This document shows, piece by piece, positions 5,968-41,871 of a stretch of DNA of 64,000 nt. Below the pieces are notes generated by a model that did no database searches, was not told where the DNA came from, and saw only the letters and a program-made list of their open reading frames with translations. The DNA comes from Leucoraja ocellata. Taxonomy: Eukaryota. Where the stretch lies: contig JAWMAR010000026.1 of the NCBI GenBank assembly GCA_036785375.1, positions 8,308,001 through 8,372,000 on the forward strand, in the 5' to 3' direction. The translations under genes and the position numbers were made by a program. The stretch's first letter is position 1; each line of letters begins with the position of its first letter.

Positions 5968-5988
5968 TGCTTTTAGTAGGAAACTCAC

Positions 5989-7879: not shown

Positions 7880-8390
7880 GACCTTTCTGTCCTGGGCTTC
7901 CGCCCTGGCCAGAATGAGGTCACATGCAAACTGGACGAACAACATCTTATCTTTCATTTGGCTGGCTTACTATTCAACAGTATAAACATTGAATTCTCCA
8001 GTTTTAGGTAACTAAACCCTCCCCTCTCCCTTTTACCCCCACATTCTCCCCCCCAACCCTTTTCCCCCTCCACCCACCTCGATTCACACCTAGTTCTCCT
8101 ATATATCAACTATATTCCTTCCTCTAGCTTCACAATTTGCAACTCTTCAATCCTTTTGTTTCACAACTTATGTTTTTACATCTCTGGCCTTTGTCCAATC
8201 ATCTGCCTATCAACCCCCTATCTGTATCAATGTGTCACCTGCCAGGCTTTGTCCTGCCCTTCCACTCTTCCAGCTTTCTCTACCCTACAATTAGTCTGAA
8301 GAAGGGTCCCGAGCCAACACATCACCTATCCATGTTCTCCAGAATTGCAGCATGACCCGCTGAATTACTCCAGCACTTTGTGTCATTTTT
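7880..8390 (+). mobile_element. Penelope-like element 3' remnant (GIY-YIG C-terminus plus terminal unit)
   Basis: LSVLG..KLDEQHLIFHL..INIEFSSFR*, followed by the ctgaagaagggtccc.. terminal unit. Confidence 0.75.
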
Positions 8391-8945
8391 TAAATCATTA
8401 ATGTGTCATGTTAGTGATGTAGCTGGAGCAATCACATTGGATTGAATTGGGATGAATTTCAGAAAGTGCTGCCTCATGAAGGCAGATAATATAATCAAAG
8501 TTTCACAGAAACCTGGCCATGTTCTCTTCTTGCTGCTACCTTCGGGAAAGGTACCCTCTAGGTTCAAGGCAGCTTCGTCCCATTAACCGTCAGGCTCTTG
8601 AACCACACTGCACAAGCTACCTCAGCATCAAACCACTATGGACTCTAACAGGTTGCACTATTATGGGTGGTTACTTAGTATTATTGATAATTTGTTGTAT
8701 TGTTGTTTATGGTACATTTATTTGTTGTGTTGTTGTGCTAATGTGCCTGAAAAGCGGCATCAAGTAATAATTTCATTGTTCCATTCCCAGTGTAAATGAC
8801 AATTAAATGCATTCACATGGCAATTCAGTCATTCTTTGAAGAGAAAAAAAGCATTGATATCCCTCTGTATCATAAGCAACATTATTTCAAATGTACCTTG
8901 TTGCTGGTTTGATGATGTGGTGTTTAATTAGGCACTTTTAATTAC

Positions 8946-9091
8946 CTGTGGGGAGAACTTGACTTCATTGTTATCTGACAGCCACTGAAATCGGACGACA
9001 TCTATTACACTTCGATTGGTCATCATGAAGGTCACCTGATAGGGCTTGCCAATGTAGCAGTCTCCAAAATGAATGTGGTTCAAGTATTGTG
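8946..9091 (-). CDS. HYDIN: HYDIN coding exon
   Basis: ttatcctag|CA...CAG|gtaatt, 146 nt. QYLNHIHFGDCYIGKPYQVTFMMTNRSVIDVVRFQWLSDNNEVKFSPQ. Confidence 0.93.
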
Positions 9092-9654
9092 CTAGGATAA
9101 ATCACCATAACATGACGTTATTATTTCTCATTTCCTACAACACGTAACTAAATTCAATTGCTGTAAATGAACTTGATAGTGGAGGTGTAACAATGCATTG
9201 AAAAGTCAGCAAACAATTAGGGCTTAAATCTTTACTGTCGGACACAAATTCACAACTTTCTACATCAAAGACCAAGGGTCTGAGACTTCAACACTGTTGT
9301 ATACAAGCACTATAGTTCCCAACGTCAAACTGTCTGCTGCATGATGTGCAAATTGATAAGGTGAGATACAAGCAGCTCAAACAAGATACCCAGAGTTCAC
9401 TTGCAGAATATTCACAGACCCACTTAGAATTTGCTACATATAAAGTTGCAGTTTAGCGCAGCTGATTGAACTGGTCCTTGATGGGGCCTTAAAGTAACAT
9501 TACTATCCACAATAAATATCATATAATACTACAATTTTATATGTTGTGACAGCACCCTATCCCGTAGGGTGTTACTTTGATCCATTTAACTGGCTGACAG
9601 GCCAGAGTGGCCAACTCCCAGCATTATTACTGTTGGTTGGCCACTTGAACAAAG

Positions 9655-9860
9655 AAAGAGAGAGAGGGAGAAAGAGAGAGTGAAAGAGTGAGGAAGAGGG
9701 AGAGAAAGAGAGAGAGTGAGAAAGAGAGAGAGTGTGAGGACGAGAGAGAGAGAGAGTGAGGGAGAATGAGAAAGAGACAGCGAGAAAGGGAAAGAGAGAG
9801 AGAGTGAGAAAGAGATGGGGAGCGTGAGGGTGAGGGGTAGGAGGAGGGGGAGAGGGAGAG
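9655..9860. repeat. GA-rich low-complexity tract
   Basis: Read directly from the sequence. Confidence 0.85.
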
Positions 9861-9954
9861 AACATTTTTTTTACCACTATTGGAAAAGGACAAAGACAGG
9901 CTAGGATCAAGTTCTCTACATTGAGTATCTGAAATCCAGATGCACTCAGCAACA

Positions 9955-10842
9955 TGCTGTCCCAACTCTATAATCAAGTTTACTGATGACACTGTGGTGG
10001 TGGGCCTGATCTCCAATAAGAATGCGAAGGCCTACCAGGAGGAGGTGGCTGATCTGGCACTCTGGTGTCAGGACAACAGCCTCCTCTTGAATGTCATAAA
10101 AACTAAGGAGCAGATTGTGGACTTTAGAAGGGCACAACAACCGAGGACGTATACGCCTCTGGAGATAAATGGGGCTACTGTGAATAGGGTGAGCTACTTT
10201 AAATACCTGGGAGTCCACATCACAGAGGATCTGACATGGACATCACACGCTGCCACACTGGTGAGTAAGGCAAGGCTGCGCCTTTACCACCTCAGGCAGC
10301 TGAGGAAATTCAGAGTCTCTCTGAGGATCCTTCAGTGCTTCTACTCAGGGGCTGTAGAAAGCATCTTGTCCAGCAACATCACAATCTGGTTTGGGAACTG
10401 CTCTGCCCAGGACAAGAAGGCTCTGCAGAGAGTAGTGTGTTCGGTCGAACGCTCTATGGGAACTACACTCGCCCCCCTGCAGGAACTATACATCAGAATG
10501 TGCAGATCCAGAGCCAGCAACATTATGGGGGACCACTACCACCCCAGCAACGGACTGTTCCAGCTGCTACGGTCTCCGCTGTCATGCTGTGAAAACAGAG
10601 AGGATGAGACGGAGTTTCTTCCCACAGGCCTTTAGGACTGTAAACTCTTATCTCACCAGGGACTAATTTACTGTACCAATTTGCTGTTGTGCTGTGTCTT
10701 TTTAAAATTGCAGGGTTTTTTCTAACACAAATACTGATTCTGATCTATTCTGTTCTGTAGTTTTTTGCACAATCCACAGGCATTGCCACTTTCATTTCAC
10801 TGTACATCTTGTATGTGTATGTGACAAATAAACGTGACTTGA
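9955..10842 (+). mobile_element. Rex1/Babar LINE 3' fragment (RT C-terminus)
   Basis: IIKFTDDTVVVGLIS..WCQDNSLLLN..FKYLGVHITEDLTW; tail tttcactg..gtgacaaataaac. Confidence 0.88.
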
Positions 10843-12146
10843 ATAATGCAATTAATTATTTAATTAAGAATTGAAAACTAAGCAGATATGTAGAAAGATC
10901 TTAGAAACGAAGATGGAATTTGGGTGGGGAGAAGCATGTAGAATGCTGGTAACATTGTAATTGAAGATGTTTTGTAGATGTGCCGCATTAAAGAGGATTA
11001 CAAAGAAGAGCGACTACCTGAGTCTAAAACAAACATACATTGAGTATACTGATGGAAGCAGGCTATATAATTCAAAAGGAATACTCTGCCAAAGGCAACA
11101 AGAACATTAGAGAAAGTGTGTGATATATTGCGTGTGAATACTGTGGAAAGAGGATAAGTTAATTGTCTAATATCTTTAATAATGGGGCTATGATTCAAAA
11201 ACTTGCACATAAAATGACAATGGACAGTGTGGCTAATCGTGAGGAAGGTGGTGGAAAGATATCCGTGGATTGCTCAGGTTGGCAAGTAAATGACAGAAGA
11301 AAATCTGCCTAAAGAAGTGTGGGACATTTTCAGAGAAAGCAAACAAAGCAATGGAATGCACAATACATGGTAGGATCTATTTATTTCATAACAGATAAAC
11401 AAGGTGGATACATACACACGAGATGCTAGCTCTTTATGGATAAGCAACAGAATGTAAGAGCACAGCTGTGATTCTAGAATTGCACAAAACACTATTTCAC
11501 CCACAGTTGGAGTAACGCGTTAAGATCGTATCACACCAAAGGCAGGATGTGGCATAACTTGAGGGTACAGAAAGATTTGCAAAGGAGTTGCAAGGGCTAG
11601 AAAACAGAAGTTATGTGGCAGACTTGAGATGCTTTCTCTGGAATAAAGAAGAGCGAGGGAAAACTTGATTAAGGTGGATGAAATATGGCAGAGAGTAAAA
11701 CCTATTTCACTTGGGCGAGGTAAATAAAGTAGGGAAAAGATTAAATTTAAAGATTTAAAGAGTAGAGATCATCATTTTTTCAATATGGGAGTCTGTAGCA
11801 GACAGTCCTACTGAATGGTAATCAGCAAGCCTAAACATATTTTAAAATGGATCAGTCTGCACACTTGTAGAGCCATAAATTATGAATGTGTGGATCAAGA
11901 ATGATGATGTTAGAAATATCCAAGCAGCTCCTATTTAGTCAGCATGAACATGGTGGGTTGCATAGCCTCCTTCTGCTGTATAGTTGATGATTCTATAGTT
12001 GCTTAAGGAGTTTTCGGTTGTGATGGTATTTGAATAATTTGCATAATGTGAATCTTTAGAGTAAGAGACCCGTTGGCCTACCCTCACCCTAACCTTTGCA
12101 TTTCAGGACCAGCTGAGGGGCAGGGATGGTTGGTCTACAGGTAATT

Positions 12147-12525
12147 GAAACATCGAAACATTGAAAATAGATGCAGAAGTAGGTTATTCGTCGCTTAGAC
12201 CAAGCACCATCATTCAATATGATCATGACTGATCATCCAAAATCAGTACCCCATTCTGGTTTTCTCCCCATATCCCTTGATTCCATTAGCCCCAAGAGCT
12301 ATATCTAACTTTCTCTTGAAAACATACAGTGAATTGGCCTCCACTGCCTTCTGTGGCAGTGAATTCCACAGATTCACACACTCTGGGTGAAAACGTTTTT
12401 CCATATCTCAATCCTAAATGGCCTACCCCTTATTCTTAAACTGTGATTCCTGGTTCTGGACTCCACCAACATTGGGAACATTTTTGCTACATCTAGCCTA
12501 TCCAATCCCTTAAGAATTTTATAAA
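12147..12525 (-). mobile_element. CR1 LINE 3' fragment
   Basis: Reverse complement of the CR1 3' end seen at 7300-7800 and 37900-38250. Confidence 0.88.
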
Positions 12526-13386
12526 TTTCTTGGTCCGATTTAGGTACAACACAGTTTCCCCTATGTGCATTGTAATAATAATTAAATCCATGTCTTTGAT
12601 ATTGACGCTACTTCCTGGTATCAGTAGCAGATCCAATCCACAGACCTGGACACAAATGCAGGCTAACGTTCTGCTGCTGAATGCGGGCAATGATGTGATA
12701 ATAAACCAAGAACCTCCCTCTCCTCTCAAATCCCCGTGAGAGACTCGGTTGACTATTTCATGAAATGTGCCACGTCCCCTCGAGTTACTTCCATTCTTTT
12801 TGTGAAATCTTGCTGTACATCAGTTGATTGTGCATTTCTATGCTACACCAGTGGCTGCATTTCAAAGGTATTTCATTATTGGGATTTTGGTGGGATCCGA
12901 GAGATAAGTGAATTCCTGGTGCAAAAATGCGAAAATCATTTTCAGAAAACTTTCATGGCTCTTAATTTCTTCTCTTGATGCGCACAAAAATCACAGACTG
13001 GATGAGTGCAGATTCACAACACACAGCAGGAACAACAGTGGGAGATTTTATGTCAGTCAATCAATTTACAAGCTCCTCAGGCAAGGAAAGTTGATGGGAG
13101 TCTGGATAACACAAACTCCAGCCAATTCAAATGCTGACCACTAGTGGTCAACAGTATCAAATGCAAATATTATTTAAAGCAGGAACTAATTGGCTATGCT
13201 CTTTGTCACAGTCGCACATGAGTGTGAAGTTTTGTACAAAGAAAATGGTCTTGGCCACTTCATCCAGGACTTGAGGACTTCTAATCTCTCTAGCAGAGTA
13301 GCCTTGGATCAAAGTGTAAATGTTACATTGTCACAAGTCCATAATCTTGAAGTATTTCATTGATTTTCAGGAAAGCATGATATATA

Positions 13387-13510
13387 GAAGGGTCTTGACC
13401 CGAAACGCCACCCATTCCTTCTCTCCAGAGATGCAGTCTGTCCTGCTGAGTTACTGCAGCATTTTGTGTCTATCTTCAATTTAAACCAGCATCTGCAGTT
13501 CCTTCCTACA
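13387..13510 (+). mobile_element. Short Penelope-terminus-derived unit
   Basis: gaagggtcttgacccgaaacgccaccc...gagttactgcagcattttgtgtc...ccagcatctgcagttccttcctaca. Confidence 0.75.
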
Positions 13511-13520
13511 TTTGATATAT

Positions 13521-14021
13521 AGTGCAAGATTTGGTCCCTAATTTGAGGAAGGACATTATTGCTATTGAGGGAGTGCAGCGTATGTTCACAAGGTTAATTC
13601 CCGGGATGGCGGGACTGTCATATGCAGAGAGAATCGAGCAGCTGGGCTTGTATACTCTAGAATTTATAAGGATGAGAGGGTATCTCATTGAAACATATAA
13701 GATTATTAAGGGTTTGGACACGCTAGAGGCAGGAAATATGTTCCCCATGTTGGGGGAGTTCAGAACGAGGGGCCACAGTTTAAGAGTAAGAGGTAAGACA
13801 TTTAGAACAGAGATGAGGAAATGCTTTTTCCACACAGAGAGTTGTGAGTCTGTGGAATTCTCTGCCTCAGAGGCCGGTTCGCTGGATACTTTCAAGAGAG
13901 ATCTTGATAGGGTTCTTAAAGACAGTGGAGTCAGGGGATATGGGGAGAAGGCAGGAACGGGGATATGATTGTGGATGATCAGCCGAATGGCCTACTCCTG
14001 CACTTATTGTCTAGTGTCTAT
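13521..14021 (+). mobile_element. CR1 LINE 3' fragment
   Basis: ORF 13522-13968, PNLRKDI..EGVQR..LGLYTLE. Confidence 0.9.
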
Positions 14022-14098
14022 TCACTGAGAAACACTATGATAGTTTGCATTAATCTGGAATTTACCCAATGTTGCAGTAATTGTAATGAGTCTCTCAC

Positions 14099-14359
14099 CT
14101 TCGATTTCTTTATCTTCCAGAAATGTTGTAATGTTTTCTTCTCCACCATTTCGCACTAGTCCATGGATATTGTCAAGAGTAATGTCATCCTGGTACCCCT
14201 CACCAACCAAATTTATAATGGTGTCCTCATATTGGTTATTGAATACGGTAAGGAAGACTGTTCCTTCTAAACGTTGAATTATGGTTGGTTGGAATGCAAC
14301 GTCAAATGTTACCTCTTCGCCACTGTTGATGTTAATTGTGAGCATGCAACTTTCCCTTA
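14099..14359 (-). CDS. HYDIN: HYDIN coding exon
   Basis: tttacacag|TA...GAA G|gtgaga, 261 nt. GEEVTFDVAFQP...NNQYEDTIINLVGEGYQDDITLDNIHGLV. Confidence 0.95.
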
Positions 14360-14423
14360 CTGTGTAAAAGTATAAAATTAGTTTTGTGGCCATAATAGTA
14401 TTTTGTCAAAAAATGTCAACTGC

Positions 14424-14428
<5 letters not shown>

Positions 14429-14476
<48 letters not shown>
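14429..14476. repeat. (TA)n microsatellite
   Basis: Read directly from the sequence. Confidence 0.95.
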
Positions 14477-14478
<2 letters not shown>

Positions 14479-16679
14479 GCACTGAATTATGCATAACGTA
14501 ATAGAATGGCTTAGAAGTACAGTGCACTAATTATTAACTTTGGCTTCTTCCACAGTACCTCCCAAAGCTGTAGCATCTCCCACCAAGAACAACAAGGACC
14601 AGGTGCATGGGAAGATCCCCACTTCTAGGTACCCCTTCATGCTACACACTAACACAATTTGGAAATACATTAGCAGTCCTTCAACGTTGCTGGCTCTAAA
14701 TCCTGGAACACCCTGCACCACAGAACTGTAGGAGTACCGTCACCAGAAGGACTGCAGTCACTCGAGATGCTGGTCTTACAAGTAAAACACAAATTGCGGG
14801 AAATGTATTTAAAAAAACAAAGATAATCCAGTCGAGGACTTGGCACTGATATTTGTGCCAATGGGAAATAAATTGGTTTGCCTCTTTGGAAGCTGCAGGT
14901 AAAATCAATGCAAAGACAGCACAATTGACTGAAAAATAGTAACAGCAGTAGAAAATTCGTGGTGAGGTTGCCTGTAAATTTATCCAGCAGCTCTGAGCAC
15001 CTTTAAATCTAGTTACCATAAGGAATCTTAGAAGAGCAGGAAACTGGGCGTGCAAACAGAATGATTACTGCCAATACTCACTGGCTTCTTGCTCGGTGAG
15101 TCCTGCCTTCAATATCAGTGTCATTAGTTGGAGGAAGTTCCTTGGCAATAATTTAACTTTTCTACTGTGCGCAGGGTTGGAGTTTGGAGGTCCCGGTAAT
15201 GTTGCTTACAGTGACAGTGCATGAGGAAAATAAAATGACCTGTTGAAAAAGTGGCTTCCTGACTTCTAATTTTATATATTCAAGGGATGGGGATGTCAAT
15301 GGTAAAGTTAATGTTTATTATCTCTCCCAAATTTCCATTTGGAATGAGGGAGTTTCCAGGCCATTTGAGTGGATTGGGAAATACTAACCATCTTGGTGGT
15401 CTCACGTCACACTTGGCTTGAGAAGATAAGGATGGCAGATTTGTTCTTTGAATAACATTGAGTTGTTCTAGCAGTCTGATTATTTACTTGTCTCTGTTCT
15501 GGCAGTAGCTTTCATTTTAGAGTTGTTTAATTCCACAAATTTGGATTCTTCCCCCCCCCACCCCCCACTGGCACATGGGAATCCAACTCATCCGATCAAT
15601 ACTCAAGGTTCTACAGACCATGAATCATCATGCTGAAAATGAATTCATAGCCAAGAATGAAGTACAGACCTATTTGGAGTGTTCAGAATCCCCAAAATAA
15701 TGTAATTGCAGTTTCCAATATTAATAATTATGCCAGGATTATAATATGTACAATATTAATACGACAACTGGTTAACATCCTAAACCACACGCATCAAAAT
15801 TGTAAAACAATCTTCTCCAACTAAACCACCACCATCTCCCATTAAAAAATCCCACCTGAAACTAATGAAGACAAATTCTAAACCAATTAGAACCCCCCTC
15901 CCCCCCCACCACCCAAATTAACAATAACCTCAGCCAGCCAACCGCTGTGGCTATGTACCCATTGCCAGTACATCCAGGGTCAAGGCAGCCACTGTGCATC
16001 TACTCCCAGTACATCTAGGAAACATTCATTCCCATAATTCAAAGAATAAATCTATATATAATCGCATATCTAATGGTCAACTCAGCCAAAAGTTCATCAA
16101 TTCAACCTGAACCTATCTAAACTCAATCACGGCCCAAACTGAAATAAACACTTACGACCCATTTATAATAAGTGCCCATCCCATAAGAGCGAGAGGCAGA
16201 CCATGGTCCCGTCAGAAACTACCAACCTAATTTGAATCCTCAGCAAACCCATGCAACAGGAATACAAAGCACCCACTCAGAATAAACTCATAACTAAATC
16301 GGAATATCATCTGAATGGAAACTGACCTAACTGGGTCATATTTAACCAGACCACAGTACATCACAGAAGTAATTAGAACACTGTCACAACTCACACAGAT
16401 AATTATGCCTAAGTAAACCATTCACTTCCTCAACTTCATTATCTGTACTTCAGGGCACAGGTGGGCAACTACAGACTTCCAGAACTACCATGACTGTTAC
16501 TTCACCCAGAATTCTATTTCATTCTCCAATTTTTCCGTGTCCAGCTCATCTATTCTGTTGAATTCATCTAATGCACCAGTGCGTCTCAGAAATCTCCCCT
16601 TTTCCCTCAGTCGTGGTTTTACTTCCATCATAGTTGACAAGCGTGTTTGTTTCATTTCCTGTTCTCACCCAGAACACAA

Positions 16680-17635: not shown

Positions 17636-17772
17636 CTGTCATGAAAAACACCCAGCACACAGTTTATTTGAGTATGATCGACAAACCAAGAAATATACAC
17701 ATGCTTGGACATTTTTAAATGTCCTCCCTCCATCATTTTCTGAGAAAACAAATTAGCCAACAGGTATCAATA

Positions 17773-17958
17773 GAAGGTACACAATAATGCTGGAAAAACT
17801 CAGCGGGTGCAGCAGCATCTATGGAGCGAAGGAAATAGGCAATGTTTCGGGCCGAAACGTTGCTTATTTCCTTCGCTCCATAGATGCTGCTGCACCCGCT
17901 GAATTTCTCCAGCATTTTTGTGTACCTTCGATTTTCCAGCATCTGCAGTTCCTTCTTA
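17773..17958. mobile_element. Fold-back miniature element made of two head-to-head Penelope-terminus units, with 14-bp TSD
   Basis: 78-bp inverted arms (17773-17850 and 17852-17929), flanked by aacaggtatcaata at 17759-17772 and 17959-17972. Confidence 0.85.
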
Positions 17959-18564
17959 AACAGGTATCAATATAATGTCTAATAATAAAAGTAGTATAAA
18001 GGTTTTGCAAATGAATAGCAAGGCATGCTGTTTCTTATAGAGGCACAAATCAATTAAAATTGCACAAATATTTTTGTTCAAAATGCATATATTACAAAAT
18101 GTAGAGCCAGCCAAATATTGAAAATCAAAGTTAAATTTCATTGAGGGATGAGAAATATCTGGCCAATGTCTACATTTCTTCTTCATTTTGTTCATGCATA
18201 AAATGAGGAAGAGATGTACGCAGAAACTCTCTTGTCTTTGACAAGCATTCAAAGGGTGTGCACTCCTTGGTTCAAAACTTTTAAATTCTGACCATGCATT
18301 ACAAATTAATAATAGATTCCCCGAGTTCTCTTAGTTTGAGTCTACACTTTTTCAGAGCCTCAGCAAATCCCCTCTAACTTCTCAATGGTCTTCCCATTCA
18401 TAATTAATGATGGACAGTTCCCCAAATTAATTGCTTAAAAACTAAATGAGTCCCTCACTTCAACTTCCACTGAATTAAAATAACAAAATCCTGAACTTCT
18501 TTATCCATGATTATTTACTATGATCCATTAAATAATAGATATAATGCAAGGCAACAACTTCAGT

Positions 18565-18592
18565 CTGAAGAAGGGTCTCGACCCGAAACATC
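18565..18592 (+). ncRNA. Minimal hammerhead-ribozyme-like motif in a Penelope-terminus unit
   Basis: CTGAAGA-A-GGGTC-tc-GACCC-GAAAC-ATC. Confidence 0.45.
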
Positions 18593-20159
18593 ACCCATTT
18601 CTTCTCTTCAAAGATGTTATTCGTACCACTATTCCTGTATTTTGTGTCTAGCAACAACTTACAATGTATCCAAGTTAGATTCACAGTTTTTGAAACTTTA
18701 TCTTGATCACCAAAGAGTGTCTTTCAAACACAGGTTGTCTCCAAACAGCCTCTTCAGACTGCCTTGCACGACTGCTAAGTATCATAATTCTCTGTAGGGT
18801 TTGGGGCAACTGTGCCGAGTGTCTGGATATTGTTAACTGTACTCATCTCCATAAATATGGATATGATGAGTTTCGAGGGAGCAGCAATGTACTTGTCACA
18901 GTGCCATCATCCCATCTCAAGGTGCCCCATTCATGCAGCTTTTTCTATTCCACGCATAAAATATCGTGATTCTCCATTAGAAGGGTTATTAATTCTAGCT
19001 TGCATGGATGAATGCACATACTTTGCACAACGACCACAGCTGTTGTAATAAACTGTGTTTTCATCAAACCATCTGTTGCAGGAGATAGACATAAAGATCA
19101 TTGTCACACATTGACTGATCCACTAAATTGAATGGATTGGCATATGGACATTAGCTAGTGCAGTTGGCATGAGGTTACTTTTATGCCTTTACCCTCCAGC
19201 CTCAGATTCATTCTGATATCAGGGGAAGATTATCACATATCATTGAATCAAACTCCAATTAATATGATTGAGGAATGTGTTAGGTTCCAAACTAAATCAA
19301 CCTCAACGATAGCCACTTATCTATGACCCCGATTATACTTTGCCACTTCAGGTAGACAAAATCTACTCATGAAATTGTGCATCACTGCTTAAAAATAAGG
19401 TATTGCCTATGATAGGACACAGTTGATGTAACTTTTTTACTGGAATGTTTGCGAGTCAGTTGAACATAGAGTAATGAAAGCAGAGCCTTTGAATATTAAA
19501 AAAGAGGTGGATAGGTTTTTGATATGGGTTTGAAAAGTGGCCACGGATAAGATGGAATGCAGATTTGAGTTTTGCAATCAGATCAGCAATCATTTTATTA
19601 AATGCCGGAGTGGCCTGTAAGGCTGAGGGGCTTACTCCTGCTCTTAATTCTCATCTTCATAAAACCGTACAATAGGGCTCATCCAGATTGTAAACTGTGC
19701 CTAAAAGGTAGAACTCTTAAAAAGTCTGCCATTATATTACTTCAAGCAACATTGGCAGTTGTTTGCAGAAGAGTGAATTAAAATCCTGTTGGCAGGATCA
19801 AACCCAGGTCTCTGGTGCTGTTAGGCAGCAATTATATCGGTGCGCCACCTCATTCTTCCAGCTATCTTCAACTATTACTTAACCTTCAATTCTACCTTCA
19901 ATCTAAGGACAACATTTTCATACTGCTGGTCACCGAGAGGCAACCCACAGATCAATTCTTTGACACTGGTGTGCAGTTTCAGACATTGGTGTTAAGACTG
20001 AGGCGATTAACATCAGCGCCTGATTCTGTTCAATAATTAAACTATTTTGTAGAAAATAACCAAGCAAATGTGAGGTACATTGAAAACAGTAGACATATTT
20101 CTGTGTCCATACTAATGTGCTTTACCACTGAATATTCAATCGGGGAGTTCACTATTTAC

Positions 20160-20346: not shown

Positions 20347-20519
20347 CTACAAAAGAAGGATGGTAAGAGGATGCAATTTTTCAATTGGAAAATACATTCA
20401 GATTTCTCTTTTTTTTACTCTCTTTAATATCATAATTTTTTGGGGGAAGTGGATGGGGAGGGGAAAGGAGGTGAGAGGAGGGGAAGGGAGGGGAGAGGAT
20501 GGGAGAGGATGTGAGGAGA

Positions 20520-28142: not shown

Positions 28143-29060
28143 TGTGTAGGAAGCAACTGAAGATGCTGGTTTACACCGAAGATAGACACAAAATGCTGGA
28201 GTAACTCAGCGGGACAGGGAGCATCTCTGGACAGAAGGAATGGGTGACATTTTGGTCAAGACGTTTCTTCAGACTGAGAGTCAGGGGAAAGAGGCACGAG
28301 AGATATAGACAGCGATAGAGAGCAAAATAAAACATGGAAATAAAAGATACTGTATGCAAAAAAGTAACGATGATCAAGGAAGCAGCCCATTGTTAGCTGT
28401 GGGCTTGGTGAAAACGAGATATACATAGACAATGAAACTCACCAGCAAGCCAGTGAAACTAGTACAACAACTAGGGTGGGGGAGGGACGGAAAGAGAGGG
28501 GATGCAAGGGTAACTTGAAGTTAGAGTGTTCATATCGTTGGGTTGTAAGTTGCCTAAATGAAATATGAGGTACTGTTCCTCCAAGGCAGGGTGGAAAGAA
28601 GTGTAGTCTAGATAGTTGTGAGATTCAGTAGGTTTATAATAGACATCAGTCGATAGTCTATCTCTTGTGATGGAGATGGTGAGATCAAGAAAGTGGAAGG
28701 AGGTGTTGTCCAGTAGATGTTCCAAGTGAATTTGAGTACAGGATGGAAATTAGTTGTCAAGTCAGTGAAGCCAATGAGTTCTGCTTGTGTGCAGGAGACT
28801 GCACCATTGTAGTCGTCATTGTAGCTGAGATAGAGTTCTAGGATAGGGCCAGTGTACGCCTGAAATAGGGATAGTTTGACGTATCCTACAAAGAGGCTAT
28901 GCCTGGGTTTTGGAGGAAGTGGGAGTAGTCGAAGGAGAAGTTGTTGAGAGTAAGGACCAGCTCTGCTAGGCAAAGGAGAGTGTTGGTAGAGGAAAATTGG
29001 CTGGTTCTGTGGTCGAGGAAGAAATGGAGGGCTTTGGCTGTGGTCAAAGAAGAAACAGAG
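28143..29060 (-). mobile_element. Penelope-like element remnant with internal deletion
   Basis: RT motifs (YLSYNDD, FHPVLKFTW, FLDLTISI..DVYYKPTESHNYLDY) joined directly to the EN tail LEEQYLIFHLG; terminal unit at 28143-28277. Confidence 0.82.
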
Positions 29061-30188
29061 GGCTGTTATTGAAGCCCTTATAGACAGTGTTCCCAAATCG
29101 TATCAACTCTTTTCTTTCCTAACACCATCTCCAGTTCTCCTACCAGTTCCCTGAAATTGGATGAGTGAAATACACAGCTGGTGGACAGAAGCAGTATTTT
29201 GGCATGGACCAGTTTGGCTAGATGGTTTGTTTACACACTGTGCATTCTAAGCAATTTTAAACAGGCAATGTGAGGAGAAAATATGTAGCGCATGAAATCA
29301 AATTTTCTCTCTCCCAATACTAGAAATGTGGTGTAAACAGAGTTATAGGTTTTGGTAATGTGTTCTGGGAAGCTAGATGGAATACATTAATGCTCCTAAT
29401 TTGACAATAACTCGAGTTCATTTGACAACTCTACAGAGAGGTAGCAGAATGGTTATCGCAGGAATCGGAGAAATATCACACTGGTATGGATGACAGGAGC
29501 CTTTGGAGTTAAGGCACAGAAGATGGAGAATTCCTATCTGTGCAAAGTCATTTATGTGGTAGGAATTGGAGCATACCACTAATAATAAAAGCAGAACTCA
29601 CTCCAATGGCAGTAGACAAGACACTGCTCCTGCTTTGTGCCCAGTGGTCTGTTAAGCATAAAATCAGAAGCATTTTGTATGACAGAACAGAACTGTGCAT
29701 TCTGAACTTCTGGTTGGTGGATGGTGAACATTTCTGGTTGGTGGATGGTTCCTCATACCTGAGGGTAGAGCAACAACCAATCTTGTGGAGGAAGTCAACA
29801 GGTTAAGCAGTATCTTTGAGAGGTGGGGAGGGGAAGGAACTGTTCACGCTTCGGGTCAAAACCTTGCATCAGTAACCAAAGTAAAGCATAGACTAAGCGT
29901 AAACCAGAAATCCATCCTTCTGGCCAGTGCACAAAATGACCCCAAATTTAGGTTTCTTTGCAACTCCTCAGCTAACGCCAAGACGTGGGAGTTACTGGAG
30001 AGTGACTAGGGGTGGGATATCTGAGCCAGGATCCTCCTCTCCAAATCCAGGGGCATTAAAAGCTGTTATGATATCGCAAGAGTGAGAAATTCTCCTGGAA
30101 GAAATCGTAAACAGAGCAAAGACTGATGGAACTGAAAGCACCTCCACCAAATTGTAGTTGAGGAATAATCGGAAGGGACTTTCCATAC

Positions 30189-31900: not shown

Positions 31901-32037
31901 TGTGTAGGAAGGAACTGCAGATGCTGATTTAAACCGGAGATAGACACAAAATGTTGGGAGTAAATCAGCGGGTCAGGCAGCATCTCTGGAGAAAAGGAAT
32001 AGGTGACGTTTCGGGTCGAGACCCTTCTTCAGATTGA
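31901..32037 (-). mobile_element. Short Penelope-terminus unit with intact hammerhead-like core (32005-32032)
   Basis: Minus strand: CTGAAGAAGGGTCTCGACCCGAAACGTCacctattcc...cagcatctgcagttccttcctacaca. Confidence 0.8.
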
Positions 32038-32214
32038 GTCAAGGGAAAGGGAAACAAGAGATATAGACAGTGATGTAGATAGATATAGATCAAATTGATT
32101 AAAGATATGCAAAAAAGTAATGATGATAAAGGAAACACGCCATTGTTACCTGTATGCTATGTGAGAACGAGTGCAGACAATGAGGCTCCACAAGGCGACT
32201 TTGAAGCAAGTTGT

Positions 32215-33734: not shown

Positions 33735-34262
33735 ATAATAAAAACAAACTTTATTCAAGTAAAAAATATGTGTAATACAGGAACTGTGAACAATTCTTCT
33801 GATATTATCAGCTATGCATTGTGTTTACACAAATTACACAATTTTACCCCACACCCTTGCCACTTATGTGGCCCTCTGGCATGAACACCCTTCCCATATT
33901 TGAGGGGCATCTCCACCACACCCTGCTCCCCCAATGCCCAGCATCAGAAGGACCCTAGACTGTTGCCCTCCCCCACAGAGCCTTGGCTGCGCCATGCTTC
34001 AGTGCTTCCCTCAGCATGTACTCCTGCAGTCTGGAGCGGGCCAGTTGGCAACATTCCCTGACAGACTGCTGGGAGGACAACAAAATTCGGGCAGACCAGA
34101 GGGTGTCTTTCACCGAGTTGACGATCTTACAGCAGCACTTGATGTCTGTCTCTGAATGCGTCCCTGGAAACAGTTCGTAAATCATAGAGTTATCTCTTAT
34201 GGAGCTGTTTGGAATAAACCGTGACAGGGACCCTTGCAAACTTCAGACACTCTTTGCAAATC
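33735..34262 (-). mobile_element. Tx1/L1-group LINE 3' fragment
   Basis: ORF 33955-34239 (IVNSVKDTLWSAR..ECCQLARSRLQEYMLREALK..WGRATV), then a 3'UTR with AATAAA and an A-rich tail on the minus strand. Confidence 0.7.
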
Positions 34263-34878
34263 CATATAGAGGTGGGCAACTGCCTCTGGGAACTCCCTCT
34301 ACATTCGATGATTCAACTACACAGTAAGGACAAATTATAGTGGCTAAATAACCTAGAAACCCCTCCACCTTTGGGATGTGGCAGGCAGAGGTCACATCTA
34401 AGCGGTCACAGGGAGAATGTGCAAACTGTAGACAATGGCAGATGCTAGGATTGAAATCACGTCCCGAGCAAACAAAAATGTTGGAGGAACTCAGCAGGCC
34501 AGGCAACATCTATGGAGGGAATGACAGATTATGTTATCAGTCGTGTTCCTTCTTCAGACGGATGGCGTAGGTTTATTGTGCATATGCCAATAAACTCGAC
34601 TGGACTTGAAACACTCAGCAGGTCGGAAAGATTCCATAGATAGAGGAATGGAGTTAACATTCAGGTTCTGGTCTTCAAGTTAAAACACTGTTTTTCTCTC
34701 TCAGATGCCTAAGTAGTTGAGTGCTTCATGCATTTAATGTTTTTATTTCAGAATTCCATCATCTGGAGATTTTTTATTTCAAATACAACATCCCTTTTTG
34801 GCAAATCCGAGGGAAGCAACTCTGCTTTTTGATCTATAATTTATCATCAGACTACTTGAGGAGAAACAGAAAAAGTAC

Positions 34879-34978
34879 CTGTATGCAATCTCATATTTTC
34901 CTTTGTTCTTCAACGTGATAGTCTGTTTCACGGTATCGATAACTTTAATGATACCAAAATCAATCCCGCCATCTGCAC
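34879..34978 (-). CDS. HYDIN: HYDIN coding exon
   Basis: aataaag|GT...TAC AG|gtactt, 100 nt. GADGGIDFGIIKVIDTVKQTITLKNKGKYEIAY. Confidence 0.92.
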
Positions 34979-35177
34979 CTTTATTGCAGAATCAAGAATA
35001 AGATGTTAATATATATATCTCTTCAACATAACCGCTGCAGCAATGGAAATGTACGTGGAGAGGAGGAAGCTGATGAGGAGTTGGTTTAATAGTGCATGGC
35101 CTCTGGCCAATACATTACAAACTATACCGTGTGGCTGAGTCTGGATTCCAGCTGGACGGAAGACTGAAGGTAGACAT

Positions 35178-35264
35178 AGACACAAAGGAACTCAGCGGGA
35201 CAGGCAGCATTTCTGGAAAGAAGGAATCGATGACGTTTCGGGTCGAGACCCTTCTTCAGACTGA
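35178..35264 (-). mobile_element. Short Penelope-terminus unit with intact hammerhead-like core (35232-35259)
   Basis: Minus strand: cagtCTGAAGAAGGGTCTCGACCCGAAACGTCatcg. Confidence 0.75.
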
Positions 35265-35796
35265 ATGAGTAAGTGTTGCAGGATAATCAAACTGATGATT
35301 TGGGGAGCAACCCACAGGGGCAACCCTGAGCTTGCCGTTGCCGCCACTTTAATTTTCCACCCCACTTGTGTGTAAGCGCCTGTTCCTCTATATCCTGTCT
35401 GGTATCGTAGATTGTGAAAATCGTTATTGTTATGATTAGTGTTGCCTTGAAGTCTATGTTCAAGATAAATAATGGAGACTTCACTATGTATCATGGTTCT
35501 GTTTTAATAGTTCCAACTATTGTATGGCTTCTACAGGCTGCTCTTTCTGCATCTGTTCCTGCACTTTCCAGATCACATGTCCTTAAAAGTTGGTCATGCA
35601 CTTAAATTTGTATGTCACAACCCAGTTTCAATTGTAACAGTATAACAATTCTTAAAGAAATACAGCAGGCTCCTGATCAGCTGGCCAAGTGGGCTGAGGA
35701 ATGGCTAAATGGAGTTTAATGCAAATAAGGTCAGGAGCTTTTTTGTGAATGGTAGGGCCCTGGGAGTGTTATAGAGCAGAGGGATCTTGGCGTACA

Positions 35797-36535
35797 GGTA
35801 GACAAAAATGCTGGAGAAACTCAGCGGGTGAGGCAACATCTATGGAGTGAAGGAATAGGTGACATTTCGAGTCGACACCCTTCTTCAGACTGATGTGAGG
35901 GTGGGGTGGGGGGTGGGGGGGGGGGAGGGGAGGCGGGAAGAAGAAAGGAAGAGGCGGAGACAGTGGGCTGAGGGAGAGCTGGGCAGGGGAGGGGGATGTG
36001 GGAGAAAGCAAGGACTGAAATTGGAGGTCAATGTTCATACCGCTGGGGTGTAAACTGCCCAAGCGAAATATGAGGTGCTGCTCCTCCAATTTGCGATGGG
36101 ACTCACTCTGGCCATGGAGGAGGCCCAGGACAGAATGGTCAGATTTGCAATGGGAGGGGGAGTTGAAGTGCTGAGCCACCAGGAGATCAGGTTGGTTAAT
36201 GCGAACTGAGCGGATGTGTTGGGCGAAGCGATCGCCAAGCCTGCGCTTGGTCTCACCGATGTAAAGCAGTTGACACCTAAAACAGCGGATGCAATAGATG
36301 AAGTTGGAGGAGGTGCAGGTGAACCTCTGCCTCGCGTGGAAAGACTGCTTGGGTCCTTGGATAGAGTCGAGGGGGGAGGTAAAGCGACAAGTGTAGAGTT
36401 TCCTGCAGTTGCAAGTGAAAGTACCAAGCAAGGGGGTGGTTTGGGTGGGAAGGGATGAATTGACCAGGGTGTTATGGAGGGAGCGGTCTCTGCAGAAAGC
36501 CGAAAGTGGAGGAGATGGTTAGATGTGGCCAGTAA
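35797..36535 (-). mobile_element. Penelope-like element 3' part: GIY-YIG endonuclease plus terminal unit
   Basis: ORF 35769-36431: FTCTSSNFIYCIRC..LLYIGETKRRLGDRFAQH..VAQHFN..RKLEEQHLIFRLGSLHPSGMNID. Confidence 0.92.
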
Positions 36536-36606
36536 CTCCTTGGACAATTCATCCCTTCCCAATCAAACCACCCCTTCTCTCCTGGTACTTTCCCTTGCAA
36601 CCGGGC

Positions 36607-38392
36607 TGGGCTTGTATACTTTAGAAGGATGAGAGGAGATCTTATTGAAACATGTAAGATTATTAAGGGTTTCGACACACTACAGGCAGGAAACATGTTC
36701 CCGATGTTGGGATAGTCGAGAACCGGGGACCACAGTTTAAGAATAAGGGGTAAGCCATTTGGAACGGAGATGAGGAACAACATTTTCACACACAGAGTTG
36801 TGAGTCTGTGGAATTCCCTGTCTCCGAGGGGGTTGTGGAGGCTGGTTCTCTGGATGCTTTCAAAAGATAGCTAGACAGAGATCTTAACTGCTAGAGTCAG
36901 TTATTAAAGATGGGATAGCAGCACATTTGGAAAGTGGTGAAATCATTGGACAAAGTCAGCATGGATTTACGAAAGGTAAATCATGTTTGACGAATCTTAT
37001 AGAATTTTCGAGGATGTAACTAGTAGTGTGGATAGGGGAGAACCAGTGGATGTGGTGTACCTGGACTTCCAGAAGGCTTTCGACTAGGTCCCACATAAGA
37101 GATTAGTATGCAAACTTAAAGCACACGGCATTGGGAGTTCAGTATTGATGTGGATAGAGAACTGGCTGGCAAACAGGAAGCAAAGAGTGGGAGTAAACGG
37201 GTCCTTTTCACAATGGCAGGCAGTGACTAGTGGGGTACCGCAAGGCTCAGTGCTAGGACCCCAGCTATTTACAATACATATTAATGATCTGGATGAGGGA
37301 ATTGAAGGCAATATGTCCAAGTTTGCGGATGACACTAAGCTGGGGGGCAGTGTTAGCTGTGAGGAGGATGTTAGGAGACTGCAAGGTGACTTGTATAGGC
37401 TGGGTGGAGTGGGCAAATGTTTGGCAGATGCAGTATAATGTGGATAAGTGTGAGGTTATGCATTTTGGTGGCAAAAACAGGAAAGCAGACTATTATCTAA
37501 ATGGTGGCCGACTAGGAAAAGGGGAGATGCAGCGAGACCTGGGTGTCATGGTACACCAGTCATTGAAAGTAGGCATGCAGGTGCAGCAGGCAGTGAAGAA
37601 AGCGAATGGTATGTTAGCTTTCATAGTAAAAGGATTTGAGTATAGGAGCAGGGAGGTTCTACTGCAGTTGTACAGGGTCTTGGTGAGACCACACCTGGAG
37701 TATTGCGTACAGATTTGGTTTCCAAATCTGAGGAAGGACATTCTTGCCATAGAGGGAGTGCAGAGAAGGTTCACCAGACTGATTCCTGGGATGTCAGGAC
37801 TGTCTTATGAAGAAAGACTGGATAGACTTGGTTTATACTCTCTAGAATTTAGGAGACTGAGAGCGGATCTTATAGAAACTTACAAAATTCTTAAGGGGGT
37901 GGACAGGCTAGATGCAGGAAGATTGCTCCCGATGTTGGGGAAGTCCAGGACAAGGGGTCACAGCTTAAGGATAAGGGGGAAATCCTTTAAAACCGAGATG
38001 AGAAGAACTTTTTTCACACAGAGAGTGGTGAATCTCTGGAACTCTCTGCCGCAGAGGGTAGTCGAGGCCAGTTCATTGGCTATATTTAAGAGGGAGTTAG
38101 ACGTGGCCCTTGTGGCTAAGGCGATCAGAGGGTATGGAGAGAAGGCAGGTACGGGATACTGAGTTGGATGATCAGCCATGATCATATTGAATGGCGGTGC
38201 AGGCTCGAAGGCCGAATGGCTTACTCCTGCACCTAATTTCTATGTTTCTATGTTAAAGATAGCGGAGTCAAGGGGGATATGGGAAGAAGGCAGGAACAGG
38301 GTACTGATTGTGGATGATTAGCAATAATCACATTGAATGGCAGTGCTGGCTCGAGGGGCCAAATGGCCTACTCCAGCATCTTTGTCTATTGA
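36607..38392 (+). mobile_element. CR1 3' fragment (36607-36888 plus 38252-38392) interrupted by a younger CR1 (36889-38251)
   Basis: The inner copy has [21 protein letters not shown], a 292-aa open C-terminus and a (tttctatg)n tail. The outer copy resumes at ttaaagatagcggagtc. Confidence 0.9.
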
Positions 38393-38631
38393 TGCAAAAC
38401 TTTGGAGTTCTCCACCTGAGAGTTTGTTGAGTACTCAGTCATTGACGGTGAGTAGATCTTTGTATTGTTAGGGGCTGAAGATAAATCAACGAGTGGGTAA
38501 GTGGATGAGATATACAGTTTATCCGGATCTTATGCAAAGAGCCAGCTCTTGCTTCAATTTTTACCGTTACTATTGTCTTTCCTGACATGAGCTCATTCTG
38601 TGAATCAGCACTGCAGCAATAGCAACCTTAC

Positions 38632-38731
38632 CTTTAGGGAAACTGATGTCCAGAGCCACATCATAAGCTTCTGCAAGGATCAGTATGTTTTCCGTTTGAA
38701 CAATGCCGAGAATGTTATCTGCATCATAGAC
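38632..38731 (-). CDS. HYDIN: HYDIN coding exon
   Basis: ctctcctgag|GTC...AAA G|gtaagg, 100 nt. VYDADNILGIVQTENILILAEAYDVALDISFPK. Confidence 0.93.
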
Positions 38732-38910
38732 CTCAGGAGAGGGCAAGCAAAATGATAACATGAAAACATAAACACACACTTGATATCCACTGATTGGACC
38801 AGATGGTGAATGCTAGTTGAGGACTAATTAAGCATGATCTAATTATATGTTATACTCTTGTTGCTACACAGCATTCATTAACTTCAACAAAGCACTCTCA
38901 TTACAAGAGA

Positions 38911-39122
38911 AGACACAGAGTGCTGGAGTAATTCAGTGGATCAGGCAACATCTTAGCAGAATATCAACATTTCAAGTCAGGACGCTTCTTCAGCTGAAAA
39001 ACGCCTCCCATCCTGAAATGGTGGCCATCCGTGTTCTCCTGTGATGCTGCCAGATCTGCTGAGCTACTCCAGCATTCTATGTCTTCTTTTCTAAATCAGA
39101 AACTGCAGCTTCTTGTTTCTAC
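38911..39122. mobile_element. Degenerate fold-back Penelope-terminus element
   Basis: agacacagagtgctggagta ... tactccagcattctatgtct arms, centred on cttcttcag|ctgaaaa. Confidence 0.65.
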
Positions 39123-39983
39123 CTCCCTGATTACAAGTCCTCTTTGCATTATCAGCATCTGACTTAGAACACCTCATTTCCTACAAACATTTGGGAGACC
39201 AGCGGGATGGATGAGAATAGAATTACCAGTTGCTGCAGGCACCTTCTGCCGGGTGGGAAATGGAGCATTTGTGTGTGTTCTCTCCACAGACCCATGCTTT
39301 CAACCTCAATTATCAGAGGTTGGGTCAAGCTGAATAGAGCTGAGAGAGTTGAGCAGACTCACTCGCTCACTCACTGAGTCAGGGAGGTTGGCTGGCGGCC
39401 ACTCTTACCATGCCTGCTAGCTCTCCATCACAGCTGTTTCTGTGATCCTTTCCCACATACCATTTTGTTGATTTCTGACTTACAAACAGTTCAGATTACA
39501 AACAGTTCTCAGAACATAACCGTGTTCCTGACTGCCTGAAACTATATTTAAAATATTGTAATTTACTCGTAATACGTTCAACAATGGCAGTGTCATTGGC
39601 GAATTTAAAAATGCAGTAGGAACTGTGTCCAGTTACACATTCATGAGTATAGAGCACGTAGAGCAGGGGACTGAACATACAACCTTGAGTTGGTAATGAT
39701 TATATTGGGGAGAATTGTTGCCCCCCAACCCTGACTGCATACCTGAAATGAGGCACTCAGCCACTGGCCAGGGAGCAATTTGCTCATGTATCCAATGAGA
39801 CTCAGGAAATGTGAATTTTATTGGAACTTTACTCCAACCATGGGCATCCACTGCACACACACTCTGACGAGTGTTAAAATGGGAGCTCGCTGGTGTGATT
39901 ATTATCTTTTTATTGGGATATTATTTAAAATTATTGAATAAAATTGCATCTCACTTGCTCAGTACTCTTCTCAATCCACATAC

Positions 39984-40181
39984 CTCAAGCCGAATGTACT
40001 TTCTCAGGTTGATTTGTCTTGTAGCTCTGAAGTGCACGTGCACACTAAATTCAGCTTTGGGTTCAATGATTCCCTGGTCCTGAGAGAGAGTGAAGTCCAT
40101 CACCAGATTCTCAGGCCAGTGATTCTCCACGCTACTGCCAGAAGACAAGTGTTCCGCATCACCAGGCTCTTGGTGTCCTTC
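39984..40181 (-). CDS. HYDIN: HYDIN coding exon (contains an apparent 1-bp deletion)
   Basis: ttccctcag|G AAG...GAG|gtatgt, 198 nt where 199 is needed. KDTKSLVMRNTCLLAVAWRITGL, then shifted frame ENLVMDFTLSQDQGIIEPKAEFSVHVHFRATRQINLRKYIRLE. Confidence 0.9.
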
Positions 40182-41349
40182 CTGAGGGAAATCAATCAAA
40201 ACTTGGTCTACCAACACACCAAGGTGATCATACACACACACATATAGTCAATATGGTACATGTAAAAGTATCATCATTGTATTAACAAGTCAACAAGGCA
40301 ACAGATTTTACACATACTATGAGTTAACAACCAAGTAACCGGGTTTAGTTTTTAGTTGAGAAATAAACATTGGCTCGGTATTAGGATAATGTCTTCAATG
40401 ATTCAAAATAGTGTCTGGGTGTTTACAGGTTCAAGGACAGTTTCTTCCCAGCTGCTATCAGGCAACTGATCCATCCTATCAACAATTAGAGAGCAGTCCT
40501 GAACAACTTTCTATCTCATTGGAGACCCCCCAGACTCTCTTTAATCAGGCTTTACTGGCTTTACCTTGCACTAACATCATTCACATTATTCCCTTTATCA
40601 TGTATCTGTACACTGTGGATGGCTCGATGCCTGCTTGTTGGTGCTTTGATTTTCAACAATGAGTTATTGAGAACTGTGCCCTGCCACATTTTCTCATTAA
40701 GGCCAGAATAAAATGTAAGATAGTTGGAACAAATTCCAAGGACATGGTCTGCAGAATTTTTACAGATGCACTGTAGAAACTATTCTCGTTGGTTGCATCA
40801 TGCACTGGAATGCAAGAGGCTGCAGAGAGTGTGGACTCAGCCCAGACCAACATGGGCACAGCCCTCCCCACCATTAAACATACCTACATGAGGTGCTGCC
40901 TCAAGGAGGCATCCATCATCAAGAATCCCCAACATCAGAGCCATACTCTCTTCAACTGTTACCATTGAGTAGGAGATACAGAAGGCCATGGTCCCAATCC
41001 AGCAAGGACAGGAGCTACATTCCTATAAATGTCAGGTTCGTAAAACAACCTGCATAGCTCTAATCCTAGCTCAGCAACGGACATTATGGAGCACTTCTTA
41101 AATTACCATAGACTTGTTTGCTAATTACGGTTTGCACTGGTGACTTGCATTTTTCTTTTAATTGTCACGTGGAATTCATGTGTAATTGATGTATAATTTA
41201 TGTTTTCGCGTGTTTTCTGAATCTATGTGCGGGTGATGCCACTGTGAGTAAGATTTAATTGTACCTTTACCTCACTATAGTAATACACGTAATAAACCTG
41301 ACTGGACTTGACATTTGCCTGAGATAATATTTTCCAGAATGTCAAAACA

Positions 41350-41546
41350 AGGAACAGGATGATGCTGGTTTACCAAGGAAAGACAGAAATTGCTGGAGTG
41401 ACTTAGTGGGTCAGGTGGCATTTCTGGAAAACATGGATAGGTGTTATATTGGGCTGGGACACTTCTTCAGATGGACCTAACCCGAAACATCCATGTTCTC
41501 CAGGGATGCTGCCTGACCCGCCGGGTTACTCCAGCAATATGTGTCT
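41350..41546. mobile_element. Degenerate fold-back Penelope-terminus element
   Basis: ttgctggagtgacttagtgggtcagg ... cctgacccgccgggttactccagcaa arms. Confidence 0.7.
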
Positions 41547-41740
41547 TTCTATAATATTGTCCACTTTTTAACCCTCCAGAAATCTATCCTAAACACCTCA
41601 GCCACTCGTACGATCTGCTCATCTAACATTGTGAGATGGTAACTTTATTTACAGAACTGTTGGGCTTTTCTTCATTGGGTTTCAAAGAGCCAAGGGGGGC
41701 TGCACCATGGATAGCACTTGAGGCATCGTACTTTTTTAAC

Positions 41741-41871
41741 TGTGGGAAGGAACTGCAGATGTGGTTTACACGGAATATAGACACAAAATACTGGAGTAAC
41801 TCTGAGGGGACAGGCAGCATGTCTGGTGAAAAGGAATGGGTGACATTTCGGATCAAGACCCATCTTCAGAC
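41741..41871 (-). mobile_element. Short Penelope-terminus unit
   Basis: Same unit as 31901-32037, with a degenerate core. Confidence 0.75.

Follow-up and report, generated by a model that had tools for sequence, protein, structure and literature searches.

Penelope-like retrotransposons are already known to leave minimal hammerhead ribozymes as single motifs across animal genomes. With this class we compare a repeat unit that is dispersed through 64,000 nucleotides of Leucoraja ocellata (NCBI GenBank assembly GCA_036785375.1, contig JAWMAR010000026.1, positions 8,308,001 to 8,372,000 of the forward strand); this whole stretch is called the window below, and positions in it are counted from its first letter. 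In the accessible text of Cervera and de la Pena (2014, PMC4209133) the minimal hammerheads have a helix III that consists of a palindrome only, an unpaired base between positions 9 and 10.1, a G10.1-C11.1 pair and a place in the pseudo-long terminal repeat (pLTR), all of which recur in the L. ocellata family. The published motifs, reported for Neptune, Poseidon and Xena, are likewise mostly single and derived from truncated elements. Differences concern the helices, since our family has a helix II of 4 bp and a helix I of 2 bp compared with 7–8 and 4–5 bp in Schistosoma (D. virilis also having 2 bp), and compensatory covariation, which did not appear in our family (PMC4209133).

For the Neptune clade, the account of Craig et al. 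(2021, PMC8557442), as far as it is accessible, gives the same C-terminal GIY-YIG endonuclease with a CCHH motif, the same CX2-5CxxC linker and DKG motif, and the same strong 5' truncation, partial tandems, inverted copies and optional tail; lone ends that begin at a constant point shortly before the core, which are a feature of the L. ocellata family, were not found in that part of the account. In the Poseidon element of Anolis carolinensis, a member of another clade (Frangieh et al., 2024, PMC11167929, accessible text), the open reading frame (ORF) likewise begins within the pLTR end, two starts of reverse transcription downstream of the hammerhead match the two groups of 3' ends in our family, and reads ending at the cleavage site are likewise missing. 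Its start codon lies before the cleavage site, whereas the candidate ATG of our family follows it by about 21 nt. Non-LTR retrozymes (Cervera and de la Pena, 2020, PMC7229834; Li et al., 2026, bioRxiv 10.64898/2026.07.22.740005) are likewise short, non-coding, furnished with type I hammerheads and linked to Penelope, and monomers of them occur. The available parts of these descriptions give tandem repeats of 150–450 bp with canonical hammerheads and circular RNAs, whereas our family is dispersed, minimal, shorter and collinear with an autonomous element. Cartilaginous fish are absent from one of the two supplements of PMC4209133, and our literature search, which had subscription papers, Repbase and Dfam outside its scope, returned no account of such elements from cartilaginous fish and none of lone pLTRs with a fixed start.

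A first-pass annotation of the window had described the unit as a Penelope terminus in high copy number with a minimal type I hammerhead and a weak helix I, and this part of its interpretation holds. Its further proposal, a separate retrozyme-like family whose minus-strand copies could cleave HYDIN pre-mRNA, finds no support. We conclude that the unit is very probably the pLTR end of a Neptune-type Penelope-like retrotransposon, composed of a minimal hammerhead motif and a tail of about 70–100 nt, and that its dispersed copies are probably inert, neutrally decaying products of insertion.

Identity, anatomy and abundance of the unit

An nhmmer search with a profile built from the window (17 matches at E<1e-3 in the second round) identified all 12 places listed in the first-pass annotation as copies of one unit of about 95–130 bp and added a thirteenth clear copy at 29872–29775 on the minus strand. 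The three 28-mers quoted as best copies are present where they had been placed, and a strict scan for CUGANGA..GAAA(C/U)(G/A)UH gave six matches in the window, compared with a mean of 0.09 and a maximum of 1 in shuffled sequences (n=100). GIY-YIG remnants do lie upstream of three copies (8295, 28274 and 35889), as had been reported. The other copies, said to be all solo, are more diverse: the copy at 32033 carries a Penelope 3' untranslated region (UTR) in common with the copy at 28274, and three places (17763–17945, 38905–39104 and 41361–41563) are head-to-head inverted pairs.

The anatomy of the element assigns the unit to the autonomous element itself. At genome loci matched through the endonuclease, the core starts 100–135 nt further downstream in 26 of 30 cases, while the remaining four diverge earlier (read by eye); the order is GIY-YIG domain, UTR of 100–300 nt, unit. 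The walk upstream through real broken copies led through a reverse transcriptase (RT) with DKG and YIDD motifs, a CX4CxxC linker and a CCHH-type GIY-YIG domain. At the broken loci L045, L049 and L061 the motifs DKG, YIDD and GIY-YIG follow each other in this order, which is that of a telomerase-like RT with GIY-YIG as its C-terminal endonuclease, and the family shares the CX2-5CxxC linker and CCHH motif of endonuclease-bearing (EN+) Penelope-like elements. These marks fit Neptune or Nematis, the linker occurring in Nematis too (PMC8557442, accessible part), and the label Neptune-type rests on such motifs.

Partial tandems, in which the endonuclease end is followed by UTR, unit and the next ORF, were found at L236, L262 and L263, which represent one amplified insertion and are not independent, and also at L235 and L250; at L235 an open frame starts at an ATG inside the tail. 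Since the unit closes the endonuclease-UTR end and also runs into the next ORF, the pLTR end serves at once as 3' terminus of an insertion and as 5' beginning of the coding unit. Partial tandems with a pLTR at both ends, inverted copies and an optional tail are further traits shared with EN+ elements, and the same unit is common to several subfamilies with differing UTRs. One near-complete partial-tandem insertion, together with its flanks, is present in amplified form across many small contigs (L236, L237, L241–L247, L252, L255–L259), inside a larger repeated block. The UTR between the endonuclease stop and the core (e.g., L014:2012–2129) has an AG-GT at the stop codon and a pyrimidine tract with YAG at its end in several subfamilies. 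In these sequence signals it resembles the retained intron of the D. virilis Penelope.

Exact matches to the 28-base core number 21,383 across the assembly, whereas its reversed control has none. Evenly spaced stretches totalling 760 kb contain 401 profile matches; with densities of 476–580 matches per Mb this extrapolates to about 1.8 million for the 3.44 Gb. Because inverted pairs are counted double and many loci are present in the assembly as near-identical pairs, a fairer guess is about a million insertions, and we put the total at roughly 1–2 million copies in a haplotype-inflated assembly. This is far above the 4,000–9,000 motifs given for coelacanth and Xenopus in the accessible text of PMC4209133, where the counting methods differ from ours.

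The composition of the population was studied in a sample of 668 matches from 1.35 Mb, made up of 392 kb surrounding the window, the 760 kb of evenly spaced stretches and 200 kb in a dense part of contig C1. It comprises 241 inverted halves, which is about a third, 197 lone copies with the 5' edge of the core, 130 UTR-bearing copies with shared upstream sequence and 100 internally truncated copies. Lone copies are insertions, since target duplications of at least 8 bp flank 23% of 192 of them and exceed the 3% of controls. The 3' ends form two groups, at profile positions 92–104 and at position 113 or beyond, which match the known optional tail of Penelope-like elements.

The hammerhead motif and its fate in dispersed copies

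The unit contains a minimal type I hammerhead motif with the core CUGANGA/GAAA/UH, an unpaired base after A9 and the G10.1-C11.1 pair. The palindromic positions 15.1–16.1 (ACGU) are found in the younger clusters and have undergone CpG decay in about a quarter of the copies. Among the three copies that had been drawn as the best ones, 18565 reads ACAT, which breaks the helix III palindrome, and 32032 lacks G2.2 and is left with a helix I of 1 bp. Helix II had been drawn with 5 bp and a 2-nt loop; because hairpin loops require at least 3 nt, it is better drawn with 4 bp and a 4-nt loop. Helix I is as weak as had been suspected: among 60 UTR-bearing copies 48 have 2 bp, and among 86 lone copies 5 reach at least 4 bp. 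Within the window, CUGANGA is missing from the copies at 13386 and 17763–17945, and the full core together with a paired helix II is kept in two copies only (32033 and 35260). A scan of the window with the Rfam hammerhead models returned nothing up to E=10; matches to Rfam microRNA (miRNA) families were set aside as the long hairpins of inverted pairs.

When clusters were defined on the tail alone, none of 11 core columns differed between them, compared with 18 of 61 in the tail (p=0.055). Within the motif, younger clusters differ solely by loop letters, by a U-A pair becoming U-G in both helix I and helix II, and by GUC becoming GUU. Core columns that are unchanged between clusters, combined with changes that keep the fold, suggest that the motif is under selection in active parent elements. 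Covariation, which had been named earlier as a check for helix II, did not appear in helices I and II: two-sided changes were not seen, one-sided changes from U-A to U-G occur between subfamilies only, and paired counts observed and expected under independence are 203 vs 197, 196 vs 195, 188 vs 188 and 213 vs 215.

The dispersed copies behave differently from such parents. In 82 UTR-anchored copies, substitutions amount to 62 of 809 in the core (7.7%) and 205 of 3409 in the tail (6.0%). G12, the general base according to the accessible part of PMC6155905, is mutated in 12 of 79 copies, and the tail CpG positions in 9 of 82 and 10 of 82. Core and tail thus mutate equally fast, G12 decays like any CpG, and the core is not protected after insertion. 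The predicted probability of helix I is at most 0.002 for the two intact window copies, and a double hammerhead is predicted at −6.1 kcal/mol compared with −21.1 kcal/mol for an alternative dimer. Such secondary-structure energies, which leave out tertiary contacts and protein, would disfavour self-cleavage as a dimer or with protein. Inverted pairs as suppliers of a long helix I were also considered and rejected: 9 of 160 halves keep the core with a partner whose start lies at the cleavage site or beyond it, and in most of the folds the GUC is buried.

Several observations weigh against the reading as inert pLTR ends. Core and helix II are complete in 74 of 668 copies (11%), and many loci could in principle pair up. 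The test for constraint at the level of the parents is borderline, with the p value of 0.055 given above. An alignment anchored at the core start showed fewer core substitutions than expected (14 vs 39.5; 72 vs 137); this over-conservation vanished in the UTR-anchored alignment, once the profile was not required to start at the core, and we read it as selection at the alignment edge. In the UTR class 40 of 130 copies start inside the unit, some of them mis-binned tandem neighbours. Finally, an intact full-length element was not seen, every locus read being broken.

HYDIN itself is encoded on the minus strand of the window, as had been stated, 14025–14405 matching 9ijj_4G with E=1e-17; the exon, which provides the host gene context, extends over approximately 14130–14345 as judged from the aligned residues. 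That sense copies cleave HYDIN or other pre-mRNAs during transcription and thereby affect host genes is, in our judgement, highly improbable. The two intact window cores are indeed HYDIN-sense, about 11% of all copies keep the core, and the hammerhead of the Anolis Penelope cleaves with the help of protein (PMC11167929, accessible text). Against this stand the neutral decay of the core and the disfavoured fold. Moreover, in about 200 kb placed inside HYDIN by homology, intact cores are not depleted in the sense direction, being 5 sense and 2 antisense, with damaged ones at 30 and 26 (Fisher p=0.45, a small sample). No position with many read starts or ends appeared in RNA of a related species, a weak test given the fragmented poly(A) libraries, and single minimal motifs did not cleave in vitro according to the accessible text of PMC4209133. 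The HYDIN sequence of the window, moreover, is missing its 5' exons, at least over one stretch, and may have arisen by duplication in the assembly. Were intact sense copies to cut pre-mRNA, about 11% of more than one million loci would be relevant to host genes; nothing in the data points there.

On the contig of the window (C26), about 8,143,500–8,499,800 and the sequence from 8,499,800 onward form a tandem duplicate of about 355 kb with 97–99% identity, and the window lies inside the first copy. Its HYDIN copy is without the stretch C26:8,848,001–8,858,000, which carries a HYDIN-type Ig exon. Because many of the loci analysed occur in such pairs, the duplicate is probably an uncollapsed haplotype; a true partial duplication of HYDIN is a less likely alternative.

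Starts of the lone copies and the route of insertion

One less ordinary trait of the family is that lone copies, which have target duplications, mostly start no more than 3 nt from the core. Of 132 that could be anchored, about 62% begin 0–3 nt before it. A mixture model for the same copies assigns 10, 19, 23 and 11% to 0, 1, 2 and 3 upstream bases and 22% to at least 6, with wide intervals, and the density of starts is about 31 per nt just before the core compared with 1.2 per nt inside the unit. At the cleavage site there is no peak: profile positions 29–32 hold 10 of 668 starts and the adjacent bins 16 and 11. Cleaved RNA as the template was rejected for this reason and also because the core-to-core junctions, of which 253 exist genome-wide and 100 were listed, show no dominant end at C17.

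A retrozyme cycle, in which tandem units self-cleave, circularise and retrotranspose, has a hammerhead motif and the 253 core-to-core junctions in its favour, and moreover one 31-bp array with the period of the predicted 5' cleavage fragment, matched in RNA reads by a joint that goes back 32, though DNA contigs show this joint too. Yet arrays account for 6 of the 668 copies, all at a single locus and without CUGANGA, so that complete hammerheads in head-to-tail order were not found there. The units show no permutation at the site of cleavage, where monomer ends set by it would lie, and the left pieces of the listed junctions end at many positions. Instead of a canonical helix I of about 6 bp with loop-loop contacts there are the 2 bp and the missing Rfam match described above, and the predicted dimer energies do not favour the double hammerhead. 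Since the unit also belongs to an autonomous element and is shared by subfamilies with several UTRs, we regard this cycle as barely credible. Three arrangements of repeated units deserve mention in their own right. The period-31 array at C73:7,728,090–7,728,210, a single locus among the 100 listed junctions, has a repeat that begins 3 nt before the core, ends at C17 and equals exactly the predicted 5' cleavage fragment. In C72:1,104,579–2,018,781 lie five junctions of the same type among the 100 listed, in which a core is followed by 7 nt of tail and then by another core, and two of the five are separated by 70 bp. They represent a local array or an amplified repeat with hammerhead cores and are the nearest thing to a retrozyme among the listed junctions. 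Locus L300 (5840–6120 and 6940–7424) holds a 66-bp tandem array of the unit tail without CUGANGA, in 7.3 copies.

Without circles or cleavage, the lone copies could still form a separate non-autonomous family similar to short interspersed nuclear elements (SINEs), transcribed from lone loci and mobilised by Penelope in trans. Such a family would fit the sharp start and the target duplications, the excess of lone over UTR-bearing copies and the abundance of the unit in poly(A) RNA from a related species (run X23: 26,765 among 12.9 million reads); in addition, rotifer pLTRs suffice in cis for mobilisation, as the accessible part of PMC3846280 reports. However, UTR-bearing and lone copies have the same motif and tail variants, and shared sequence upstream of lone copies is absent. 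In the RNA runs labelled as a related species the unit makes up about 0.2% of the reads, which in two bulk runs derive about equally from both strands, as read-through would give. A SINE-like origin is improbable on balance.

We therefore return to the lone copies as products of the element's own cycle. In the Anolis Penelope, reverse transcription begins at two sites downstream of the hammerhead, the main template is uncleaved RNA and the hammerhead cleaves only with protein (PMC11167929, accessible text). If the L. ocellata element behaves similarly, its enzyme would start reverse transcription inside the tail on uncleaved RNA, and most products would stop short or fold back. The clustering of lone copies 0–3 nt before the core may then reflect run-off at the 5' end of the RNA, a step that we put forward with less confidence; an RNA that begins just before the core would also explain the 2-bp helix I. 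In active parents the motif would be under selection, and its cleavage there would need a dimer or the protein of the element; the scattered copies would not cleave.

Put together, we tentatively propose, at somewhat less than even chances, that lone copies are run-off products of the strong-stop type. Synthesis would start in the 5' pLTR tail of the element's own capped RNA, the first base of which would lie 2–3 nt before the core in TCAGT, and would run off after about 100–130 nt; the cap would sometimes be copied as an extra G, or the product would fold back, and integration would follow. The TCAGT just before the core resembles an initiator, and a cap copied by reverse transcription would leave an extra G. 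In the core-to-core junctions with a known left side, read by eye among the 100 listed, AGT is preceded by G 21 times (17 times once duplicates on the same contig are removed), by A 10 times and by T 6 times, most A and T being templated by the left piece, which suggests an extra G. Genome-wide, the base before the AGT-core is C in 127,004 cases, G in 15,780, A in 14,371 and T in 11,031. The wider statistics for an extra G are weak: the G:A ratio of 1.10 is a weak excess over the expectation of 0.79 (single bases) to 1.01 (context), and the sample test, with p=0.013 and 0.008 on a single-base background, is not significant on a context-matched one (p=0.14 and 0.11). Cap copying is hence a lead and no result.

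The sharp start could also have a cause other than run-off, namely a stall of the polymerase past helix II, a pyrimidine-rich or poly-C UTR, or a 3' splice site, explanations that we see on the unlikely side. Directly before the core, all subfamilies have YAG followed by T after a pyrimidine tract, and in D. virilis the intron's 3' terminus maps to helix I (PMC4209133, accessible text). Against a splice site speaks that none of 35 copies with upstream endonuclease sequence joins the endonuclease end directly to the core, and that no such joint was found in RNA reads among 15 listed of 238. The same two counts speak against splicing to an upstream exon as a means of lengthening helix I.

Further features of the window and meaning of the family

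Four remnants of Penelope elements lie in the window. On the plus strand, a 5'-truncated element (7850–8392) consists of a C-terminal GIY-YIG remnant, a UTR of about 280 nt and the hammerhead-tail unit at 8295–8392, in which helix II is damaged. The remaining three are on the minus strand. A broken copy (28143–29050) retains RT fragments, the endonuclease end, the UTR and the unit at 28273–28143. A 5'-truncated Neptune-type element (35795–36601) has an inverted 5' arm, the CX4CxxC linker with the GIY-YIG domain (36518–36012; Pfam GIY-YIG match with E=8e-4, under the curated cut-off), the UTR and the unit at 35889–35795. The fourth (59810–60700) extends, broken, from RT to GIY-YIG, and its downstream end runs into N and is unreadable.

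Lone units on the plus strand are found at 13386–13510, cut inside the core (without CUGA) and with a long tail, and at 18564–18657, with the core at 18565–18592 and ACAT replacing the ACGT palindrome. On the minus strand lie the divergent, older lone unit at 29775–29872 that the first-pass annotation had not listed, a unit with about 140 nt of Penelope UTR at 31901–32171 (intact core 32032–32005, helix I of 1 bp, HYDIN-sense), a lone unit with a damaged core at 34468–34558, a lone unit at 35173–35260 (intact core 35259–35232, helix I of 2 bp formed by U-A and G-U, HYDIN-sense) and a lone unit with a long tail and damaged helix II at 41741–41871. The head-to-head inverted pairs occupy 17763–17962, with the junction in helix II, CUGANGA missing from both arms and a long hairpin, 38905–39114, with the junction at the 5' edge of the core, and 41349–41563. 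Together with the inverted arm at 36408–36601 they form long hairpins with sub-threshold scores in plant miRNA models; the inverted pairs are possible sources of double-stranded RNA.

Apart from Penelope, the window contains many 3' fragments of one family similar to long interspersed nuclear elements (LINEs), at 2284–2861, 7042–7562, 12142–12530, 13522–13984, 37617–38389, 52843–53342 and 56722–57507, which we take to be of CR1 type from the likeness of the translated C-terminus. Longer LINE RT fragments, presumably of L2 or Rex type, lie at 9925–10632, 49944–51956 and 57631–59500, and one of them holds an open frame of 671 codons. A perfect self-complementary stretch of 46 bp is found at 14430–14476.

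With one match per 2–3 kb, the family ranks among the commonest repeats of the genome. For annotation, the unit should be filed as a Penelope pLTR rather than as a retrozyme, a miRNA hairpin or an active ribozyme. Its sharp starts, inverted junctions and two tail ends represent a large natural data set on the insertion cycle of Penelope and the role of the hammerhead in it. If the run-off proposal is true, hundreds of thousands of copies would chart where the RNA of a vertebrate Penelope starts and where both of its initiation sites lie; the RNA would have no more of helix I than these 2 bp, and the hammerhead would be placed so as to remove a capped leader of 31 nt.

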